The notes under the pieces: generated by a model
What the model was told of the DNA's origin: nothing
Databases searched by the model: none
Seen by the model: the letters and a program-made list of their open reading frames with translations, nothing else
Assembly: GCA_946631895.1 (NCBI GenBank)
Contig: CAMPAN010000003.1
Span: forward strand, 2,556 to 66,555
Origin: an uncultured Clostridia bacterium
GTDB lineage: Bacteria; Bacillota; Clostridia; Christensenellales; CAG-138
DNA length: 64,000 nucleotides
Direction: 5' to 3'
Made by a program: the position numbers and the translations under genes
Shown here: one piece after another, positions 50,351-61,442 of the stretch
Position numbering within the stretch: the stretch's first letter is position 1
How the letters are laid out: each line of letters begins with the position of its first letter

Positions 50351-50424
50351 TGGCAGGGGCAGAAGGACTCGAACCCTCAAGAACGGTTTTGGAGACCGCT
50401 ATGTTACCATTACATCATGCCCCT
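50351..50424 (-). tRNA. trnW: tRNA-Trp (anticodon CCA)
   Basis: The minus strand reads AGGGGCA-TG-ATGT-AATGGTA-ACAT-A-GCGGT-CTCCAAA-ACCGT-TCTT-GAGGG-TTCGAGT-CCTTC-TGCCCCT-G-CCA. I folded the cloverleaf by hand: 7-bp acceptor, T-loop TTCGAGT, encoded CCA. Confidence 0.9.
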
Positions 50425-53298: not shown

Positions 53299-53351
53299 GG
53301 ACCGATCTGCATAAAAAATGCATTTCTGCATCATATATCTTCCCGGAACCG

Positions 53352-53813
53352 TTATTCCCGCCGCAGCAGCTTTTTCAGCATCGGCAACAGTCCGAGCTTC
53401 TTTGCCGCTTTGACAAGCACCGTTCTGAGCTTCCTCCACAGCGCGCGCAGCGGATAGATCGCGTTCCAGAACCGCGCATAGAACCGATAGCCGCGCTCTG
53501 TAACGACATGCTGCTTTCCCTTGCGGTTGAATGTGGTCAGTACGCCGATCACATTTTCAAACGGAACACGCTCAACGGCATACGTGTTGTCCCCGCGGAT
53601 GCGGTAATACCCGTCCTCCACGCCGATCACGCGGTGCAGAACGTAGCTTTCGCCGCGTTTATACAGCGCAACGTCGTATTTTTGCAGGCATGAAAACGGG
53701 GCCTCGATGATCACCAGGTCCCTGTTCTGCCGCAGCATGGGTTCCATGCTCGTGCCCCTTGTCTTATAGACCAGCCTGCCGTCCTGTTCGAGCAGATCCT
53801 CGAAGCGCGTCAT
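53352..53813 (-). CDS. S24/S26-family serine peptidase, SipW/Sec11-like (S26B-like) catalytic core without N-terminal membrane anchor
   Basis: ..TRGTSMEPML.. (nucleophile Ser box), ..YVLHRVIG.. (His where bacterial SPase I has KRxIG), ..RIRGDNT.. (GDN box). No N-terminal hydrophobic segment; the C-terminal tail is basic and amphipathic. The start overlaps the PqqD-like stop (ATGA). Confidence 0.7.
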   Translation of the reverse strand: MTRFEDLLEQDGRLVYKTRGTSMEPMLRQNRDLVIIEAPFSCLQKYDVALYKRGESYVLHRVIGVEDGYYRIRGDNTYAVERVPFENVIGVLTTFNRKGKQHVVTERGYRFYARFWNAIYPLRALWRKLRTVLVKAAKKLGLLPMLKKLLRRE

Positions 53814-54070
53814 TCCTCGATCGCGCCGATGCCGCGAAGCGTTGCAAGGATCTCCTCCACGTCGGCGTCGATCGTTTCCCGCGGCGCGTCATACTGCAGG
53901 CACATCGCATCCACGATCTGGTCCTTCGTCGTGTCGTTCTTCAGGCAGTTTACGATGAACGCCGCCGTCTTGTTGCTGCGTACGATCCCGTTGAACGCTT
54001 CATGACCGAGCGGTACCAAAAACTGGGTGTCGTCGATGTCCTGTACGATAAAATCGGATTTCAGTTTCAT
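53810..54070 (-). CDS. stand-alone PqqD-family protein (RiPP recognition element-type peptide chaperone)
   Basis: MKLKSDFIVQDIDDTQFLVPLGHEAFNGIVRSNKTAAFIVNCLKNDTTKDQIVDAMCLQYDAPRETIDADVEEILATLRGIGAIEE shows the PqqD-like pattern at a size of 86 aa. GAGGAGAG RBS present. The start is at ATG 54070. Confidence 0.75.
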   Translation of the reverse strand: MKLKSDFIVQDIDDTQFLVPLGHEAFNGIVRSNKTAAFIVNCLKNDTTKDQIVDAMCLQYDAPRETIDADVEEILATLRGIGAIEE

Positions 54071-54080
54071 ATTTCTCTCC

Positions 54081-55406
54081 TCAGCAGATGAGGTCGTCCT
54101 CATCCGGATTTTCTGTTAAGTCCTGCTGGTTGCGAATGATCCGTCTCAATGCTTCCGCGGCGAGCATTTCATGGGATTCTCTGCAATGATAATCCACCCA
54201 GGGGCAGTTGGCGAAGCTCGTGCATTCGGGGAGCATCGGGCATTCCCGGCACATCGCCCGCGTCCGGTCGGTCCGGCAGTATTCCTCTCTCGCAGCCATG
54301 TCGATCGTCCCGCTGACGATGTTTCCGTAGCAGCTTTCCGCGGCGCAGTGCTCGCACGGATACAGACCGCCGTCCGGTGCGATCACCACGCTGCCGCTGT
54401 CCGCCATACAGCGATGGATCCGGAATTTCATGACCGGTTCCGTATATGGAACCGGTTTGAAACCGGCTTCGGCGATCAGCGGATTTGCGGCAAGAACCTT
54501 TTTCCAGAACGCGATATCGCCTTCGCCTGCGCGGACCGCCATCAGCGGACTGAAGTATACATGCACGCGATCCTTGTGATCGACCCATTGCTTCAGATCA
54601 TTCAAAAACTGCGGAATGCCGGACCAGTTGCCTTCGTCCACGTTGACGCGCAGCGCAACTGTGATACCCGCCTCCGAGAGCCTGCTGATATTCTGCATGA
54701 CAGCGTGATACGCATCGAGATCGCCGTAATACCGCTTTCTGGCGATATAGTCCGGCTCCGCGCCGTCCATGGAAACTTGTATATTCCTTGTATGCCATGG
54801 TCCCTGCATCTTTTCGAGGATCTCCGGCGTGATCAGACTGCCGTTTGTGACGACATTGGAGCGGTACGGAATGCCCGCTTCCCGGATCCCGTCGCTGATG
54901 CGGTCGATGATCTCCGGACACAGCAGCGGTTCGCCGCCGAACCAGTTCAGCTTTATGCCGTTCTTGTCACAGTTGTCCAGAATATACCGAAGGGTCGCTT
55001 CGACCGTTTCCGGCGTCATCTTCGACTGGGCGCGTCCTTCCTCATAGCAGTAGATGCAGCGCGCATTGCAATGGAGAGTAGGCAGAATGATAAACCCGCC
55101 AATCCTCTTTTTTTTGGAAAACAGCCGCATCATGGACGAGATCGACTCATAAAAGGCAACCTCATCCTTTCCCTCGGGAACGAGCATATAGGTTTCGATC
55201 AGGGAATCGAAGCCTTCTCCTGCTTTCACCGTTTCCGGCAATACTCCTTCGATGCACTGCTTTGTCAGCGTGCTGGTTACATACTGCTTGCCGTCGCATT
55301 CAAAAGAAAAAGCGAAACGGGATGGCACATATGTAACGCCGGTGCACGGTTTTGCTTTCGGGAGCACCTTGAATAAAAACGTATCAGGTGAAAAAATCTC
55401 TTTCAT
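54081..55406 (-). CDS. radical SAM enzyme with C-terminal SPASM domain and about 95-aa N-terminal extension (peptide-modifying maturase candidate)
   Basis: The CNARCIYC (CX3CX2C) cluster follows ..FIILPTLH. GGEPLL is present. SPASM-type Cys pattern: C-MADSGSVVIAPDG-GLYP-C-EHC..C..CRECPMLPECTSFANC..C. Confidence 0.85.
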   Translation of the reverse strand: MKEIFSPDTFLFKVLPKAKPCTGVTYVPSRFAFSFECDGKQYVTSTLTKQCIEGVLPETVKAGEGFDSLIETYMLVPEGKDEVAFYESISSMMRLFSKKKRIGGFIILPTLHCNARCIYCYEEGRAQSKMTPETVEATLRYILDNCDKNGIKLNWFGGEPLLCPEIIDRISDGIREAGIPYRSNVVTNGSLITPEILEKMQGPWHTRNIQVSMDGAEPDYIARKRYYGDLDAYHAVMQNISRLSEAGITVALRVNVDEGNWSGIPQFLNDLKQWVDHKDRVHVYFSPLMAVRAGEGDIAFWKKVLAANPLIAEAGFKPVPYTEPVMKFRIHRCMADSGSVVIAPDGGLYPCEHCAAESCYGNIVSGTIDMAAREEYCRTDRTRAMCRECPMLPECTSFANCPWVDYHCRESHEMLAAEALRRIIRNQQDLTENPDEDDLIC

Positions 55407-55420
55407 AATTCAAGATAAGC

Positions 55421-55451
55421 AAAAAGCGGTATACGAAATTACGCATACCGC
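55421..55451 (-). terminator. intrinsic terminator/attenuator between the precursor micro-ORFs and the radical SAM gene
   Basis: The minus strand reads GCGGTATGCG-taattt-CGTATACCGC (10 bp, one G-U) followed by TTTTTGCTT. It ends 14 nt before the rSAM ATG. Confidence 0.7.
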
Positions 55452-55550
55452 AAACGGTAATCAAGCGTATGTGTTCAATCAACCAAGCGACAGGCTTCTG
55501 TTATCGGCGAAAAGAACAAACCCATGCGTTTGACACAGGTTTTTCGGTTC

Positions 55551-55700
55551 TTATTCTTCGACGATCGTGCCGGGCTCGTAGCCCACGACGCAGAATCCGG
55601 GACCTTCGCTGTCGCAGGGATACGTCCCCTCACAGGAATATGTGAGCACGTGATCGTTGATTCTGATAACTTCCATTTTGGGCTTTTCGTAATTCTTCAT
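55551..55700 (-). CDS. precursor-peptide candidate A (49 aa; below ORF-track cut-off)
   Basis: My own translation gives MKNYEKPKMEVIRINDHVLTYSCEGTYPCDSEGPGFCVVGYEPGTIVEE*. GGAGGT lies 7 nt upstream of the ATG at 55700. An alternative ATG is at 55706. Confidence 0.7.
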   Translation of the reverse strand: MKNYEKPKMEVIRINDHVLTYSCEGTYPCDSEGPGFCVVGYEPGTIVEE

Positions 55701-55724
55701 AATCATTACCTCCGTTATAGAAAC

Positions 55725-55859
55725 TCAAAAATCGGGGAGTTCGATCGAGTAATCCCATGCAGTGCAGCAACCATCATGTCGTTCGGTCGGACAACTCGCC
55801 GTGATTACATCTTCCGGCAAAACAATAATCTCCATGTTCGGCTTTTCATATTGTTCCAC
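55725..55859 (-). CDS. precursor-peptide candidate B (44 aa)
   Basis: Translation from GTG gives (M)EQYEKPNMEIIVLPEDVITASCPTERHDGCCTAWDYSIELPDF*. GGAG lies 8 nt upstream of the GTG at 55859. The N-terminus aligns with candidate A. The longer track ORF (to 55919) would start inside the promoter. Confidence 0.65.
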   Translation of the reverse strand: MEQYEKPNMEIIVLPEDVITASCPTERHDGCCTAWDYSIELPDF

Positions 55860-55922
55860 GATCTTCACTCCATCATTTCCCACATATTGACCGCAAAAGG
55901 GGAAAATACTGCTTCTCAATAC

Positions 55923-55951
55923 AATATAGCAAATTTGTGCAATCTTGTCAA
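55923..55951 (-). promoter_or_regulatory. sigma-A-type promoter (extended -10) driving candidates B and A
   Basis: The minus strand reads TTGACA, 17 nt ending in TGC, TATATT. Confidence 0.65.
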
Positions 55952-56093
55952 TCCGTTTTCAGAATATTCACAAATAATTCCGGCAAAACATCTTCGTTCG
56001 GACAATCCGCACAATCTGCAGCGTTTCGATCAAAATCAATCGAAACAATATTGTATGATGCTTCAGTCTCTGTCCGTTCCTGTCGATCTGCTA

Positions 56094-56192
56094 TTAAAGA
56101 GTGGGATCGGTAAACTCTCCGCCGCTCGTAGCAATAATATCGTCCTGCGAAAGAACAAGAATCTTAATCGTCGGTTTGATATATGTTTCCAT
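56094..56192 (-). CDS. precursor-like micro-ORF C (32 aa, Cys-free, double stop)
   Basis: My own translation gives METYIKPTIKILVLSQDDIIATSGGEFTDPTL**. AGGGGG lies 9 nt upstream. The leader aligns with A and B. Confidence 0.5.
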   Translation of the reverse strand: METYIKPTIKILVLSQDDIIATSGGEFTDPTL

Positions 56193-56247
56193 GAACCTAA
56201 CCCCCTATATTGTGATGCTGTGATTGATTCATACCATTCCTTATTTT

Positions 56248-56276
56248 ACTTTAGCAAAGGATTATTCTTTTGTCAA
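56248..56276 (-). promoter_or_regulatory. sigma-A-type promoter (extended -10) upstream of micro-ORF C
   Basis: The minus strand reads TTGACA, 17 nt ending in TGC, TAAAGT. It shares the TTGACAA...TTTGCTA layout with the promoter at 55923-55951. Confidence 0.55.
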
Positions 56277-56361
56277 TTCCGAATCGCGTCTATTCATAAA
56301 AAAGTCATAATTGCAGTCGTTCTGACGTCCCCTGTTTACAGTTTCGACGTTTTTCCGCGCA

Positions 56362-59300
56362 TCAGAAATCAAACAGAGAAATCTGCTTGTTCTTCGGCAT
56401 ATTGCCGAACGCACCGCAGCTTTCCAGCATGGCGACGATCCCGGTGTTTGCGCCGGTCTCGTTCGCGAAATCTTCGATCGTCGGATAGACTGCGCCGGGT
56501 TTTCTGCGCTCGCAGATCGCGATCGCCTGACCGGCGCCGACGCCGGGGATCGCGTCGAACGGCGGACGCAGCGCGTTCCCCTCGATCAAAAACTTCGTCG
56601 CATCGGACTTGTAGATGTCGACGGGCAGCAGTTCGATGCCGCGTACGTTCATTTCATAAACGAGCTCAAGGATCGTCACAAGCTCCTTGTCCTTCTTTTT
56701 CTCGCTGTCGGTCTTCTGCGTGGAGGACGATTCCTTTTCGATCTCGTCGATCTGCCGTTTCACCGCCTCCGGACCGCCCGCCGCGCGCGTGATGTCGAAC
56801 GTGTCCGCGCGCACCGTAAAGTAGACCGCGTAAAACGCCAGCGGATAATGCACCTTATAGTACGCGATGCGGAACGAAGACATCGAGTATGCGACCGCGT
56901 GTCCGCGCGGGAACATGTACTTGATCTTCTTGCACGAATCGATGAACCATGCCGGGATCTTGCCGTCGATCATCGCCTGCTCCATCTCGTCGGTCAGTCC
57001 CTTGCCCTTTCGGACGCGCTCCATGATCTTGAACGACAGCGACGCCTCCATGCCGTGCGCGATCAGATAATTCATGATATCGTCACGCGTGCACAGAACC
57101 TCAGAGAGCTTTGCGATGCCGCCCATGACGAGCGGTTCGGCGTTATTGAGCCACACGTCCGTGCCGTGCGTCAGCCCCGCGATTCGGATCAGCTCCTCGA
57201 ACGTGGTCGGGCGCGTGTTCTCGAGCACCTGCCGCACAAACCCCGTGCCGAATTCCGGCACGCCGAGCGTGCCCAGGGAGCAGCCGATCTCGGTGAGGTC
57301 GATGTGCAGCGGCTCCACGGTCGAGAACAGCATGCGCGTGTCCGGATCGTCCAGGGGGATCTCGCGCGGGTTCAGCCCGGTCAGCGCTTCCAGCATGTGC
57401 AGCGCCGTCGGATCGTCGTGCCCGAGGATGTCGAGCTTGACGAGGCGGTCGTCCATCGCGTGGAAGTCGAAGTGCGTCGTGATCGTGTTCTTGTCGACCT
57501 TGTCCGCCGGATACTGGATCGGCGTGTAATCGTATACCTCGGTATATTCGTCGTGATCGCGCGGCACGATGACGATGCCGCCCGGGTGCTGTCCGGTCGT
57601 GACCTTGACGCCCTCGCAGCCTTTTTCGAGCCGCTGGACCTCCGCGGACGAGAACGTGCGTCCCGTCGCCTCTGCGAACGAATAGACGCATTCAAACGCC
57701 TTCCGTTCCGCAAGCCCGGAGATCGTGCCCGCGCGGAACGCGTGTCCCTTGCCGAACATCTCCTCCACGTACTTATGCGCGACCGGCTGATATTCGCCGG
57801 AGAAGTTCAGGTCGATATCCGGGACCTTGTCGCCCTTGAATCCGAGGAAGACCTCGAACGGGATCTCAAAGCCCTCCTTACGGAGCATGGTCCCGCAGAC
57901 GGGGCACGCGCGGTTCGGCATGTCCGCGCCAACGCTGTACTTTTCATGATCGATGTCGAAGTCGGAGAACCTGCAGTTCGGACAGACATAGTGCGGCGAC
58001 AGCGCGTTGACCTCCGTGATGCCCGCGAGCATCGCCACAAACGACGAGCCGACGGAGCCTCGGCTTCCGACAAGATACCCGTCGGAAAGCGACTTTTTCA
58101 CCAGCCGCTGCGCCATCAGATACAGGGACGCGTAGTGGTTGCCGATGATGGATTTCAGTTCCTTATCAAGCCTTGCCTGCACGATCGGCGGCAGCGGATC
58201 GCCGTAGATCTCGTGCGCGCGGTCGATCGCGGTGTTCTTGAGCTCGTCCTCCGCATTCTCGATCGTCGGAGAATGCGTCCCCTCCGGGAACGGTACAAGC
58301 TCGTCGCACAGGTCCGCGATCCGGTTCGGCACGTCGATGACGATCTCCTTCGCCTTCTTTTCGCCGAGATACGCAAACTCGTCGAGCATGTCCTGCGTCG
58401 TCTTGAAATACAGCGGCGCCTGCTGCTCCGCGTCCGCGAACCCGAGCTTGCTCATCAGGATCGCGCGGTAGATCGCGTCGGTCGGCTCCAGAAAATGTAC
58501 GTCGCCGGTCGCGGCAACGGGTTTGTGCATCCGTTCGCCGAGCGCAACGATCTTCCGGTTCAGATCCCGAAGTCCCTCATCGTTCTCCACCCTGCCCTCG
58601 CGCTTCAGAAACGCGTTGTTGCCGATCGGCTGGATCTCGAAATAGTCGTAGAACGAGGCGATCTTTTCGATCTGCTCCTGCGATTCCCCGTTCAGAACGG
58701 CGCGGAACAGCTCGCCCGCCTCGCACGCGGAGCCGACGATGAGATCGCTGCGGTAAAGCATCAGCAGCGATTTCGGGATCTGCGGACGCACGTGCAGATA
58801 GTCGAGGTGCGACCAGCTGATCAGCTTATAGAGGTCCTTCATGCCCTTCTGCGTGCGGGCAAGCAGGATGATGTGGTTCGTCTGCCGCTTCTCCTTCGCC
58901 GCGCGCTTACGGTACGCCTCGTGCGTGTCCGGCACGATCGGAATGCGGTCGATCCCGCGTTCCTTCAGCATGTCGATAAACCGCAGCAGGATCATCGCGC
59001 AGGTGTTTGCGTCGTCGTCCGCGCGGTGATGGCTGCCCATGTCGATGTCGAAATAGGCGGAAATGGTATCGAGCTTATGGTTTTCGAGCGCGTCGCGCAG
59101 CAGATAGCGCGACAGCATCAGCGTATCGGCGTACGGCATCGGGAACGTGATCCCGAACCGGTCGCCGTGATAGGTGATAAAGCCCGTGTCGAACTGCGCG
59201 TTGTGCGCGACGAGCGTGCTGCCCTCCGCAAACGCGCGGAAGCGTTCAAGCACCTCGCGCGTGCCCGGCGCGCCTTCGAGCATGGATTGCGTGATGCCGG

Positions 59301-60378
59301 TGAGTTCCGTGATATTCTTCGGAATGACGACGCCGTCGTCGATGAAGGACTGGAACCGTTCCGTGACCTTTCCGTCGTGCAGACGCACCGCGCCGATCTC
59401 GATGATCTCGCAGCTTTCCGCCTTGAGTCCGGTCGTTTCGATGTCGAAAACCGTGAAATCGCCGTCCGCGGGCTGCGATTCGCAGTCGGGAATCAGATAC
59501 CCCTCCACGCCGAAGATCGCCTTGACGCCGGTCGCCTTCGCCGCCTTTGCCGCCTCCGGGAACGCCTGGACCACGCCGTGATCGGTGATCGCAAGCGCCT
59601 TATGTCCCCAGCGCTTCGCCGTGCGGAACGCCTCGGTCAGGTTCGTGATGCCGTCCATCGTGGACATTCTGGAGTGCAGATGCAGCTCGACGCGCTTTTC
59701 CTCCGCGTCGTCCATGCGCAGCGCGCGCGGCAGAATGCCGACGGAATCGACGTAGACGCTGCGCTCTCCGGTCTTTTTGACGATCTTGCAGACGCCCTTG
59801 ATCCGAAGGTCCTTGCCGCCCTTTGCCGCGTCGTTGAGCCAGTGATCGAAGCGCGCCGCCTGCCATTCCTCGGGGAAGCTTGCGGTGCAGTAGACCGAAT
59901 CGGAAAGATCGGTCACGTTGAACTGCACGCGGCAGTTCGGCTTTTTGACGCGCATCGACCAGTCGTCGCGGATCTCCGAGGACACCAGCCTTCCCGTGAA
60001 CACGGCGGCGGTCTCCTCCTCCCCGCGCAGCTCATAGATCGGAAGTTCCTCCGCGCCTTCGGGAATCGGTTTGCCGAGGAGCACCCCGTTTTCGGGGATC
60101 GGCACATCGACCTCGTTCTTTTTCTGCGGCGCGGCAGGCTTGACGGCGACGCGTTCCGGCTCGACGTCGCGGTATTCGAACTGTACGGCATACATGGGCA
60201 GGATCGTCCGGATCGCGCCTTCCCAAGTGTCGCACGCATCCTTTGCAACCAGCTTTGCCGTGCGCTCGACCGTTATCGTCAGCGTCTGCGTATCGCGCGA
60301 AAGGCACACGTTTTTGATCGTGAGCCACTCGGTTCTGATATGCGCCGCGTCATATGCCGCCCTGAGTTCTTCCTTCAT
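56362..60378 (-). CDS. polC: DNA polymerase III alpha subunit, PolC type
   Basis: PHP (..HLHSRMSTMDGI..AITDHGVVQAF..) is interrupted by a DEDD exonuclease (..FTVFDIETTGL.., ..LVAHNAQFDTGFI..). Polymerase core follows. The start is at ATG 60378 (MKEELRAAYDA..). The R-rich upstream extension of the track ORF overlaps ispG and was rejected. Confidence 0.93.
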   Translation of the reverse strand: MKEELRAAYDAAHIRTEWLTIKNVCLSRDTQTLTITVERTAKLVAKDACDTWEGAIRTILPMYAVQFEYRDVEPERVAVKPAAPQKKNEVDVPIPENGVLLGKPIPEGAEELPIYELRGEEETAAVFTGRLVSSEIRDDWSMRVKKPNCRVQFNVTDLSDSVYCTASFPEEWQAARFDHWLNDAAKGGKDLRIKGVCKIVKKTGERSVYVDSVGILPRALRMDDAEEKRVELHLHSRMSTMDGITNLTEAFRTAKRWGHKALAITDHGVVQAFPEAAKAAKATGVKAIFGVEGYLIPDCESQPADGDFTVFDIETTGLKAESCEIIEIGAVRLHDGKVTERFQSFIDDGVVIPKNITELTGITQSMLEGAPGTREVLERFRAFAEGSTLVAHNAQFDTGFITYHGDRFGITFPMPYADTLMLSRYLLRDALENHKLDTISAYFDIDMGSHHRADDDANTCAMILLRFIDMLKERGIDRIPIVPDTHEAYRKRAAKEKRQTNHIILLARTQKGMKDLYKLISWSHLDYLHVRPQIPKSLLMLYRSDLIVGSACEAGELFRAVLNGESQEQIEKIASFYDYFEIQPIGNNAFLKREGRVENDEGLRDLNRKIVALGERMHKPVAATGDVHFLEPTDAIYRAILMSKLGFADAEQQAPLYFKTTQDMLDEFAYLGEKKAKEIVIDVPNRIADLCDELVPFPEGTHSPTIENAEDELKNTAIDRAHEIYGDPLPPIVQARLDKELKSIIGNHYASLYLMAQRLVKKSLSDGYLVGSRGSVGSSFVAMLAGITEVNALSPHYVCPNCRFSDFDIDHEKYSVGADMPNRACPVCGTMLRKEGFEIPFEVFLGFKGDKVPDIDLNFSGEYQPVAHKYVEEMFGKGHAFRAGTISGLAERKAFECVYSFAEATGRTFSSAEVQRLEKGCEGVKVTTGQHPGGIVIVPRDHDEYTEVYDYTPIQYPADKVDKNTITTHFDFHAMDDRLVKLDILGHDDPTALHMLEALTGLNPREIPLDDPDTRMLFSTVEPLHIDLTEIGCSLGTLGVPEFGTGFVRQVLENTRPTTFEELIRIAGLTHGTDVWLNNAEPLVMGGIAKLSEVLCTRDDIMNYLIAHGMEASLSFKIMERVRKGKGLTDEMEQAMIDGKIPAWFIDSCKKIKYMFPRGHAVAYSMSSFRIAYYKVHYPLAFYAVYFTVRADTFDITRAAGGPEAVKRQIDEIEKESSSTQKTDSEKKKDKELVTILELVYEMNVRGIELLPVDIYKSDATKFLIEGNALRPPFDAIPGVGAGQAIAICERRKPGAVYPTIEDFANETGANTGIVAMLESCGAFGNMPKNKQISLFDF

Positions 60379-60395
60379 GCTGCCCCTGTGTTTTC

Positions 60396-61442
60396 TTATG
60401 CGCCCAGGATCGCGTTTGCCTCGTCGACCAGACGCCGTAAAATCTCTTCGTAACCGCCGTGTCCGACGATCTCTCCCTTTTTGATCAGCACGCCGTTGCC
60501 GTCGCCGAACGCCACGCCGATATCCGCTTCCCGCGCTTCGCCTGGGCCGTTGACCGCGCATCCCATGACCGCGATCTTCAGATAGCCCTTGTTGTGCGCA
60601 ACGTGCTCGTTCACGTACGCCGCCGCCTTCTCGACGTCGCAGCGCGTCCGCCCGCAGGTCGGACAGGAAACGATCTCCACGTCGTCCTTCCTTAGCCCCA
60701 CGGCTCTCAGGATCGCAAGCGCGGTCTCCACCTCGCGGACCGGATCGCCGGTCAAAGAGACGCGCATCGTGTCGCCGATGCCCTGCAAAAGAAGCGCGCC
60801 GAGCCCCGCCGCGCTCTTGATGATCCCGGTTTCGATCGGGCCGGTCTCGGTGATGCCGATGTGCAGCGGATAGTCCATCCGCGCCTGCGCCATGCGGTAG
60901 CTGTGCACCGTTTCGGATACGGTCGTGCACTTTAAGGAGATCACGATGTCCGAAAACCCGCAGTCCTCCAGAAGCTTTGCGTGTCCCATCGCGCTGCGGC
61001 ACATCGCCTCCGCGGGGTTTTCGCGGTACAGCGGCAGAAACTGCTTTTCGATCGAGCCGCCGTTGATGCCGATGCGGATCGGCACGTGATGCGCTTTACA
61101 GCAGTCCGCAACCAGACGCACGCGCTCCGCGCTCCCGATATTGCCCGGGTTGATGCGCAGCTTGTCCACGCCGTTTTCGACGGCTTTGATCGCAAGCCGG
61201 TAATTGAAATGCACGTCGGCGACGAGCGGAATATGGATCCGCTCTCTGATCGTCCTGATCGCGTCCGCCGCGGCTTCGTCAAACACCGCGACGCGGATGA
61301 TCTCGCAGCCGGCTTTCTCAAGCCGCAGGATCTGCCCGACCGTTGCGTCCACGTCACGCGTGTCCGTATTGCACATGGACTGCACGGAGACAGGCGCACC
61401 GCCGCCGATCTGTATGTTTCCGGCCTTCACATAATCCGCCAT
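60396..61442 (-). CDS. ispG: 4-hydroxy-3-methylbut-2-en-1-yl diphosphate synthase (flavodoxin)
   Basis: ..IQIGGGAPVSVQSMCNTDTRDV.., ..SCPTCGR.., ..VMGCAVNGPGEA.. Confidence 0.93.
   Translation of the reverse strand: MADYVKAGNIQIGGGAPVSVQSMCNTDTRDVDATVGQILRLEKAGCEIIRVAVFDEAAADAIRTIRERIHIPLVADVHFNYRLAIKAVENGVDKLRINPGNIGSAERVRLVADCCKAHHVPIRIGINGGSIEKQFLPLYRENPAEAMCRSAMGHAKLLEDCGFSDIVISLKCTTVSETVHSYRMAQARMDYPLHIGITETGPIETGIIKSAAGLGALLLQGIGDTMRVSLTGDPVREVETALAILRAVGLRKDDVEIVSCPTCGRTRCDVEKAAAYVNEHVAHNKGYLKIAVMGCAVNGPGEAREADIGVAFGDGNGVLIKKGEIVGHGGYEEILRRLVDEANAILGA

Follow-up and report, generated by a model that had tools for sequence, protein, structure and literature searches.

A probable biosynthetic cassette for radical-SAM-modified peptides between polC and rny of an uncultured Clostridia bacterium

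A compact group of genes lying between polC and rny was analysed on a 64,000-nucleotide stretch of contig CAMPAN010000003.1 (assembly GCA_946631895.1), from an uncultured Clostridia bacterium. This whole stretch is called the window below, and an ENA metagenome scaffold is identical to it in sequence (L030/L033, in a series of locus labels running from L001 to L120). The group comprises three micro-open reading frames (micro-ORFs A, B and C), a gene for a radical S-adenosylmethionine (rSAM)/SPASM protein, a PqqD gene and a peptidase gene. It is considered likely, with a probability of roughly three in four, that the locus is a self-contained biosynthetic cassette for rSAM-modified peptides that are synthesised on ribosomes and modified after translation (RiPPs), that these are probably thioether-crosslinked, and that the cassette belongs to a family from rumen and gut Clostridia. 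The RiPP logic proposed in an earlier note on this DNA is supported by the combination of leader-related precursors, a RiPP recognition element (RRE), an rSAM/SPASM enzyme and a clan-SF peptidase. Every component that the note had named was found on the minus strand at the position given for it. The features of the cassette are as follows, in their order along that strand:

56295..56315, no strand assigned: imperfect 21-nt direct repeat, left copy, about 47 nt downstream of the polC stop codon; 16/21 identical positions
56248..56276, minus strand: promoter-like site P1, a TG-extended TTGACA-17-TAAAGT upstream of micro-ORF C that counts only as a match to the consensus
56094..56192, minus strand: micro-ORF C, 32 aa, with a GGGGG Shine-Dalgarno sequence
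56023..56046, no strand assigned: perfect 10-bp palindrome GTTTCGATCA...TGATCGAAAC in the interval between micro-ORF C and P2, without a T-run; -10.1 kcal/mol, z = -3.3
55923..55951, minus strand: promoter-like site P2, a TG-extended TTGACA-17-TATATT with 11/12 matches, upstream of micro-ORFs B and A
55725..55859, minus strand: micro-ORF B, 44 aa, GTG start, GGAG 8 nt upstream
55551..55700, minus strand: micro-ORF A, 49 aa, ATG start, GGAGG 8 nt upstream
55518..55542, minus strand: weak hairpin directly past the micro-ORF A stop codon; -11.3 kcal/mol, z = -2.5
55416..55451, minus strand: intrinsic-terminator-like hairpin with T-run, 10-bp stem with 6 G-C pairs; -17 kcal/mol, z = -5.9
54081..55406, minus strand: rSAM/SPASM gene, 441 aa
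53810..54070, minus strand: PqqD gene, 86 aa, preceded by a 10-nt gap GGAGAGAAAT that holds GGAGAG
53352..53813, minus strand: peptidase gene, 153 aa, its start overlapping the PqqD stop as ATGA
53310..53330, no strand assigned: imperfect 21-nt direct repeat, right copy, between the peptidase stop codon and the rny promoter; 16/21 identical positions

Leader-related precursor peptides

The three micro-ORFs were found to share a leader of about 22 residues with the consensus M-x-x-Y-x-K-P-x-[MI]-x-[IV]-[IL]...D-[DVH]-[IV]-[ILT]-x-x-S. Micro-ORF A consists of the leader MKNYEKPKMEVIRINDHVLTYS followed by the core CEGTYPCDSEGPGFCVVGYEPGTIVEE, micro-ORF B of the leader (V/M)EQYEKPNMEIIVLPEDVITAS followed by the core CPTERHDGCCTAWDYSIELPDF, and micro-ORF C of a family-type leader METYIKPTIKILVLSQDDIIATS followed by the Cys-less core GGEFTDPTL. 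When all six frames of the window were searched with the leader pattern [YF]x[KE][PA]x[LIVM][EDKN][IVL][IVL], exactly three matches were obtained, which sit three residues past the starts of micro-ORFs A, B and C, with no match in 100 block-shuffled windows.

Loci with relatives of the rSAM gene were collected from a one-genome-per-species scan (22 loci) and a metagenome scan (80 loci), and further related loci were added by exact-protein look-ups. Small ORFs adjoin the homologous rSAM genes, nearly always directly upstream, and share the leader M-x-x-Y-x-[KE]-[PA]-x-[ML]-[ED]-[IV]-[IV]...D-[VA]-I-x-[TA]-S. In this way, about 58 different peptides with a related leader were catalogued (loci L001-L116). 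A profile built from the three window peptides matched 78 clusters at E <= 1e-3 among 1.84 billion representative proteins, and 77 of these clusters are small proteins of 30-64 aa with the same leader. The micro-ORFs are therefore conserved beside homologous rSAM genes in many genomes, as expected of leader-related precursors; their absence from homologous loci, which the earlier note had named as the outcome that would speak against them, was not what was found. A distant branch, in which the rSAM protein is about 30% identical to that of the window, includes the cultured Ruminococcus sp. YRD2003 (L007). It carries the leader variant Y-[VI]-E-A-E-L-E-I-x-x-F-D-A-E-D-V-I-T-T-S together with very short cores such as CPSDDEV.

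The cassette of locus L001 was used to compare the precursors codon by codon. Micro-ORF A differs between the window and L001 by nine synonymous and seven non-synonymous codons (seven and three, respectively, within the core), and micro-ORF B by eight synonymous and six non-synonymous codons. The ORFs remain intact with synonymous changes, which indicates that the reading frames of A and B have been maintained. The GTG start codon of micro-ORF B corresponds to an ATG at the same codon of its L001 orthologue. Micro-ORF C is absent from L001 and from the strains represented by L031 and L035; a 94%-identical copy with two conservative substitutions, METYVKPTIKILVLSQDDIIATSGGEYTDPTL, is present at the same place in strain L120.

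The precursor cores are short, hypervariable, acidic and rich in Gly and Pro. At least one Cys is present in the core of 56 of the 58 catalogued peptides, usually as the first core residue, and the motifs C-x-x-[DE] and C-D-T-E-x-P are recurrent. Several core classes could be distinguished, and these are found again across deep divergence: an A-type class with C-x4-6-C-[DQ]-[TS]-[EQ]-x-P-x1-2-C-[IV]-x-G-[DY], to which micro-ORF A belongs, a B-type class with a terminal IELP(D/E)(L/F)(P/S), to which micro-ORF B belongs, a third class with TSC-D-T-K-x-P-E and a further, Cys-less class with T-D/E...W-G. Precursors with the same leader and no Cys were seen in P0385, P0389, P0395 (whose context is one 531-bp contig only), P0415, P0421, L059 and micro-ORF C of the window. 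Gly, Thr, Asp and Glu abound in their cores, which often end in W-G or W-G-E-L.

The modifying enzyme, the recognition element and the peptidase

The 441-aa protein matched the Radical_SAM domain PF04055 above threshold (53.5 bits, cutoff 29.5). Its CxxxCxxC motif (C113/C117/C120) and seven SPASM cysteines (C333, C351, C386, C389, C395, C401 and C408) are invariant in alignments of 13 and of 22 sequences, and the score with PF13186 lies just below the cutoff (21.1 versus 21.5 bits). By superfamily criteria it is a complete rSAM/SPASM enzyme of the kind that matures peptides. The family to which it belongs contains more than 500 clusters and has no specific name. Scores of the window protein with individual maturase models were as follows:

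TIGR04463: 116 bits, cutoff 525
Clo7bot (TIGR04334): 104 bits, cutoff 600
CefB (NF038107): 96 bits, cutoff 600
PapB (NF047865): 95 bits, cutoff 340
SCIFF maturase (TIGR03974): 56.4 bits, cutoff 425
Anaerobic sulfatase maturase, anSME (TIGR03942): 46 bits, cutoff 349

The four best-scoring hidden Markov models (HMMs), namely TIGR04463, Clo7bot, CefB and PapB, all describe maturases of Cys-rich peptides. With a family profile, the nearest solved structures were CteB (5WGG, E = 8e-18) and TigE (8VPO, E = 5e-15), the latter entry belonging to a paper on cyclopropylglycine synthases. An AlphaFold2 model of the protein (predicted local distance difference test, pLDDT, 87) gave a similar ranking in Foldseek, with CteB matched over its full length (E = 2.7e-17), followed by TigE, anSME, ChlB and SuiB. 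The anaerobic sulfatase maturase, which the earlier note had raised as an example of a non-peptide family into which the protein might fall, was ruled out by its score and by the lack of a sulfatase among the neighbouring genes. It should also be noted that the last residue of the protein (window 54081-54086) is a Cys that is nearly invariant in the family, follows an acidic tail (...DEDDLIC, ...DDSVC, ...ESPIC) and is not part of the seven-Cys SPASM motif.

The 86-aa protein is a PqqD-type RRE (PF05402, 54 bits, cutoff 23.4, E = 2.2e-14), in agreement with its original assignment as PqqD/RRE-like. The gene is conserved downstream of the rSAM gene, with 57 ORF matches. Its best NCBIfam match was the lasso-peptide PqqD chaperone, below threshold (36.6 bits, cutoff 70), and it failed the equivalog model of PqqD from the biosynthesis of pyrroloquinoline quinone (PQQ; TIGR03859, 22.5 bits, cutoff 46). 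PQQ biosynthesis was ruled out on this score, with no pqqB or pqqC in the window or in the related loci.

For the 153-aa protein, a LexA/signal-peptidase fold (S24/S26, clan SF) with a Ser nucleophile box and a His is predicted, and the protein is regarded as a putative leader peptidase. Ser22 (in GxSMxP), His60 (LHRV), Asp75 (GDN), Asp32 and Glu81 are invariant among proteins that are 31-92% identical, and His60 aligns with the catalytic Lys of Staphylococcus aureus SpsB in a profile alignment. A Ser/His arrangement of this kind is that of the signal peptidases SipW, the archaeal enzymes and SEC11. An AlphaFold2 model (pLDDT 83) matched LexA, SipA, SpsB and UmuD in Foldseek with a probability of 1.0 and template-modelling scores of 0.54-0.65 normalised by target length. 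The model shows no membrane anchor at the N-terminus and a long, basic, amphipathic helix (residues 107-140) at the C-terminal end. The HMM scores were sub-threshold (TIGR02228, 29.8 versus 51.85 bits; PF00717, 15.7 versus 23.3 bits; also under the PF10502 cutoff), although 19 of 21 members of the family matched PF00717 at E <= 0.1. The description of the protein as SipW-like has these sub-threshold HMM scores and the fold behind it. A single-sequence search of the PDB with the peptidase returned noise only, and a family profile was required for the match to SpsB. More than 700 clusters of the peptidase exist, none with a specific name, and relatives carry the NCBI/JGI names 'S24/S26 family peptidase' or 'signal peptidase I'. 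The gene follows the PqqD gene directly and overlaps it in 33 of the 50 loci with sufficient downstream DNA. The overlap amounts to 4 nt (ATGA) in the near branch; in the distant branch it is about 8 nt.

Insertion, exchange between strains and expression signals

The micro-ORF segment has a GC content of 0.39-0.41, compared with 0.58-0.64 in polC and rny, which bears out the AT-richness described for it earlier and the contrast with its flanks. An empty site was found in a related species (L119, Rny 82% identical), in which dxr-rseP-ispG-polC is followed directly by rny across an interval of about 240 nt (L119:7762-8001). In a sister lineage (L117, Rny 93% identical), a gene for a 1232-aa alpha-amylase occupies the polC/rny site instead. 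Between this gene and rny lies an orphan leader-like micro-ORF, MKHYEAPEMEIILLNNEDVITDSSITTEEV (L117:7599-7691), with a GAGGAGG Shine-Dalgarno sequence and no rSAM, PqqD or peptidase gene at the site; a cassette since lost may have left it behind, or it may be a precursor whose enzymes act in trans. The window, L119 and L117 all retain the rny promoter block CTTGACTTT...TAnAAT...GAGTAATCCTGCAC, which in the window starts just downstream of the right copy of the 21-nt repeat. These comparisons support the view, taken earlier from the sequence of the window, that the cassette is an insertion, and they show the polC/rny junction to be a variable site. The flanking direct repeats were considered as attachment sites and set aside, since a single imperfect pair (16/21) is too weak and may be due to chance; the empty site of L119 holds a loosely similar CAGAAA..CAT..ATG stretch.

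Five contigs with 100% identical Rny (L031, L032 and L034-L036) carry the cassette at the same polC/rny site. Their rSAM proteins, of 443-445 aa, are only 59% identical to that of the window and their precursors differ, whereas PqqD is 92% and the peptidase 91-92% identical, within flanks of 95-99% nucleotide identity. A sliding-window comparison of nucleotide identity between the window and conspecific contigs gave the following picture:

polC: mostly 93-99%
Precursor region: about 0-57%, largely unalignable
rSAM gene: 56-76%
PqqD and peptidase genes: 85-96%
rny: 93-99%

The rSAM protein of the window is 93% identical to that of L001, which has a different genomic context. The L001 cassette adjoins a symporter and an aminotransferase gene on a contig that ends before the downstream neighbour, and the same flank leads into rnf genes in L002 and L023-L027. 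The divergence of rSAM and precursors within a species in which PqqD is 92% identical, together with the 93% match of the rSAM protein in L001, indicates that the precursor and rSAM half has been exchanged and the RRE and peptidase half kept. The alignments thus show a modular cassette, its precursor and rSAM half exchanged by recombination between strains and species while the RRE and peptidase half stays with the host lineage. On this view the first half would set the identity of the product, and the second would handle the conserved leader. Two strains with the same allele (L033 and L120) are 97-100% identical, but identity falls to 80% precisely where the core of B and the start of A lie, a pattern which suggests possible diversifying selection on this segment. 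The low-identity stretch corresponds to positions 5351-5500 of L033/L120, or about 55570-55720 of the window by offset from L033, and the differences within it are mostly non-synonymous.

The cassette occurs in its minimal form in the window, L002 and L023-L027. Additional genes in some relatives encode an ABC transporter that lacks a C39 domain, a PF14907 nucleotidyltransferase and a ScmC-like protein. The lack of an exporter pointed out in the earlier note is accordingly true of the window but is not a rule of the family.

Promoter-like sites were found eight times in the scan against an expectation of 3.6 +/- 1.7, and P1 and P2 therefore count as consensus matches only. The -35/-10 pair of P2 is retained in the divergent L031 allele, and the P2 block is 77-79% identical across strains whose flanking precursor DNA cannot be aligned. 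The palindrome at 56023-56046 might be an operator to which an unlinked regulator binds, or it might weakly terminate the transcript of micro-ORF C. None of 200 shuffled sequences folded as well as the terminator-like hairpin at 55416..55451, the T-run of which stops some 10 nt short of the rSAM start codon. It is likely that this hairpin acts as an attenuator that fixes the ratio of precursor to enzyme. The hairpin, which had been recognised in the window from the start, is shared with L001 and is missing from most of the other related loci examined, where the spacer between precursor and rSAM gene measures 28-70 nt without a terminator, with unrelated hairpins in a few; an attenuator as a family-wide feature was accordingly rejected. 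No Shine-Dalgarno sequence can be recognised ahead of the rSAM start codon, whereas strong ones precede the precursors, including micro-ORF C, and PqqD. Its absence close to the terminator T-run suggests that low translation of the rSAM gene is deliberate. No riboswitch or leader RNA was found in Rfam (the locus in evalue mode, the whole window in gathering mode), the only matches being one tRNA (50354-50424) and one chance microRNA match.

Some further observations concern the neighbouring genes. The mechanically called ORF of polC (56362-61002, minus strand) encodes 1546 aa, and all related contigs call the gene at 1338 aa; the additional 208 N-terminal codons are probably not translated. 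The tRNA gene (50354-50424, minus strand; RF00005, 60 bits) is located downstream of a gene for an M19 dipeptidase, in a stretch with few ORFs and a higher AT content at about 49.5-50.4 kb. Beyond the dipeptidase gene, gene content varies among conspecific strains, with YjbR, lipase and GerA genes in the window and a 1214-aa Flg_new protein or MatE in others.

Proposed pathway, alternatives and significance

In the proposed pathway, the three precursors, each with its conserved leader of about 22 residues and a short acidic core, would be transcribed from the two promoter-like sites, and the hairpin and T-run after precursor A would permit partial read-through, so that precursor is made in excess of enzyme. 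The stand-alone PqqD-type RRE is expected, by analogy with PqqD/PqqA and the lasso protein B1, to bind the leader as a beta-strand through Y-x-x-P-x-[ML], presumably with the same spacing as in the lasso and PqqA recognition motifs. The rSAM/SPASM enzyme, with one SAM cluster and two auxiliary clusters, would then abstract a hydrogen atom in the core and cross-link it. The most likely products would be thioethers from Cys to carbons of neighbouring Asp, Glu or Thr; this reading is based on the recurrent C-x-x-[DE] and C-D-T-E-x-P motifs and on the nearest relatives of the enzyme being thioether-forming or Cys-rich-peptide maturases. The Ser22/His60 peptidase, translationally coupled to the RRE, would cut off the leader behind the invariant Ser ahead of the first core Cys. 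With Ser at -1 and T, L, C or A at -3, this predicted cleavage site accords with the specificity of signal peptidases. Export of the product would fall to an unlinked transporter; relatives encode an ABC exporter beside the cassette.

A number of observations weigh against this reading of the locus. No curated NCBIfam maturase model accepts the rSAM protein, all scores being far below the cutoffs, and the second-closest structure, TigE, makes cyclopropylglycine and not thioethers. The N-terminal domain of the rSAM protein (about 100 aa) shows no profile similarity to the PqqD family (hhalign probability 1.4%), and a fused RRE like that of CteB was accordingly not demonstrated. The rSAM gene lacks a Shine-Dalgarno sequence, the HMM scores of the peptidase are sub-threshold, and the peptidase gene is missing from 17 of the 50 related loci. 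Precursors without Cys mean that thioether formation cannot account for every substrate. Finally, no exporter, immunity gene or receptor was found within the 64-kb window.

Some of these points are shared by alternative explanations. It is possible, if rather unlikely, that the same cassette logic leads to an rSAM product other than a thioether, such as a Tyr/Trp C-C or C-O cross-link, a cyclopropanation, an epimerisation or a modification centred on D-T-[EQK]-x-P. TigE, as a cyclopropylglycine synthase, is the second-best match of the rSAM protein in both sequence and fold, no curated thioether-maturase model is passed, and several Cys-less precursors, including micro-ORF C, retain T-D/E-P or Trp-Gly motifs; the presence of Cys in nearly all catalogued cores, usually at their first position, and the top HMM and structure matches to thioether-forming or Cys-rich-peptide maturases argue for thioethers instead. 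It is doubtful that the 153-aa protein has a function other than leader removal, whether on a different substrate, as a SipA-like scaffold or as an autoproteolytic regulator, with a host protease cutting the leader. SipA, which is not known to be catalytically active, is among the best fold matches, and the title of its PDB entry describes a signal-peptidase homologue essential for pilus polymerisation; the sub-threshold scores and the loci without the gene would also fit this explanation. Nevertheless, Ser22, His60 and Asp75 are invariant among proteins of 31-92% identity, the protein has only 153 aa and no DNA-binding domain, the start codon overlaps the RRE stop codon in both branches, and the peptidase co-varies with the conserved leader and not with the variable core.

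Synthesis of a peptide-derived redox cofactor, PQQ- or mycofactocin-like, in place of a secreted or signalling peptide is very improbable. A PqqD-family protein does adjoin an rSAM/SPASM enzyme, and the leader [YW]-x-K-P-x-hydrophobic resembles the start of PqqA. Against this, the cores are hypervariable even within a species, whereas cofactor precursors are invariant; two or three different precursors are present per locus; neither a conserved core dipeptide nor a co-occurring dependent oxidoreductase was seen; no PqqB/C/E, MftD/E/F or partner dehydrogenase occurs in the window or the related loci; and the PqqD equivalog score is less than half its cutoff. The chance that the micro-ORFs are fortuitous ORFs in an AT-rich spacer, next to a protein maturase such as anSME, is negligible. 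None of the three is matched by any Pfam or NCBIfam family, as would be expected of such ORFs, but the leader is conserved over dozens of loci and 77 small-protein clusters and is never met in shuffled windows, and the anSME model and the gene neighbourhood, in which there is no sulfatase, speak against a maturase of that kind.

The favoured interpretation, a cassette for probably thioether-crosslinked peptides, can be placed beside several known systems. Among these, SCIFF (six Cys in 45) peptides and their maturase CteB share an rSAM/SPASM enzyme with an extra N-terminal domain, which is the closest solved structure, as well as short Cys-containing precursors, clostridial hosts and a minimal cassette without an exporter or immunity gene. 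Membership of SCIFF is defined by a score above the curated cutoff and a cognate six-Cys-in-45 precursor, and neither was found here: the rSAM protein remains far below the TIGR03974 cutoff and the micro-ORFs, which have another leader, miss the precursor model TIGR03973. The window cassette further differs by its stand-alone PqqD RRE and clan-SF peptidase, and the cores of its family are hypervariable where SCIFF cores are conserved. With PapB/freyrasin, which has beta- or gamma-thioethers between Cys and Asp/Glu, the family shares acidic cores in which Cys is often followed two to four residues on by Asp or Glu (CPTE, CPSD, CPGD, CPED), and the PapB model is among the top rSAM matches; it differs in a score far below the PapB cutoff, in the lack of a repeated CxxxD array and in leader and accessory genes. 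No curated families score better over almost the whole rSAM protein than TIGR04463, Clo7bot and CefB, but the scores stay below their cutoffs and the cognate precursor models match no micro-ORF.

The discrete PqqD-like RRE that is translationally coupled to a protease recalls the split B proteins of lasso peptides (B1, a PqqD-like RRE, and B2, a leader protease), and PF14907 nucleotidyltransferase and HPr-kinase/ScmC-like neighbours, known from lasso clusters, accompany some relatives of the cassette. However, the protease of the window has a Ser/His clan-SF fold, whereas lasso B2 is a Cys transglutaminase-like protein, and the tailoring enzyme is an rSAM protein. A lasso cluster was ruled out, with no Asn-synthetase-like cyclase or transglutaminase-like B2 in the window or related loci. 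The peptidase resembles the Ser/His signal peptidases (SipW, archaeal, SEC11) and LexA/UmuD in its GxSMxP Ser box, its GDN box and His60 at the position of the SpsB Lys, and the conserved Ser at -1 with a small or aliphatic residue at -3 of the leader/core junction would fit the specificity of the signal peptidases. It differs from these in the absence of a membrane anchor, in a substrate without a signal peptide and in its long amphipathic C-terminal helix.

Overall, the cassette follows the working principle of sactipeptide or ranthipeptide clusters that have a discrete RRE, and it is not a categorically new system; its unusual features are the Ser/His clan-SF peptidase coupled to the RRE and the specificity module that can be swapped between strains. 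No description of the family was found in the searchable literature, including the Hungate1000 bacteriocin paper, in which 'ranthipeptide' means SCIFF (TIGR03973), and the rSAM-RRE compendium; the family may be present anonymously in large rSAM-RRE compendia. That the earlier note could not assign the peptides to a named family is justified, as no NCBIfam or Pfam family accepts the rSAM protein or the peptides and no describing paper was found.

As to function, antagonism, strain-specific signalling or metal binding could be served by the product. It may be speculated that a signalling or interference peptide agrees better with the acidic, hypervariable cores and the lack of an immunity gene than a classical cationic bacteriocin does. 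A more specific model is offered tentatively, with confidence well short of even: the RRE and the Ser/His peptidase might together form an RRE-guided leader protease for any precursor with a Y-x-K-P leader, functionally analogous to lasso B1/B2 but based on a signal-peptidase/LexA fold, the swappable precursor and rSAM module might give each strain its own small, acidic, cross-linked peptide with a pherotype- or interference-like part to play, and the Cys-less subclass, with micro-ORF C in it, might represent a second, non-thioether chemistry of the same enzyme family.

If the interpretation as an rSAM-RiPP cassette is correct, a large and as yet unnamed RiPP family exists in rumen and gut Clostridia, with a simple leader signature that genome miners could search for directly. 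For leader removal in general, a leader-specific Ser/His peptidase that is small, soluble and coupled to an RRE would be an attractive tool. The cassette would also provide a natural example of modular evolution in a RiPP pathway, in which the identity of the product is exchanged and the handling of the leader stays fixed. The hypervariability of the cores at strain level would point to a strain-specific interaction in a dense anaerobic community, an idea that can be tested in rumen isolates already at hand, Ruminococcus sp. YRD2003 among them.

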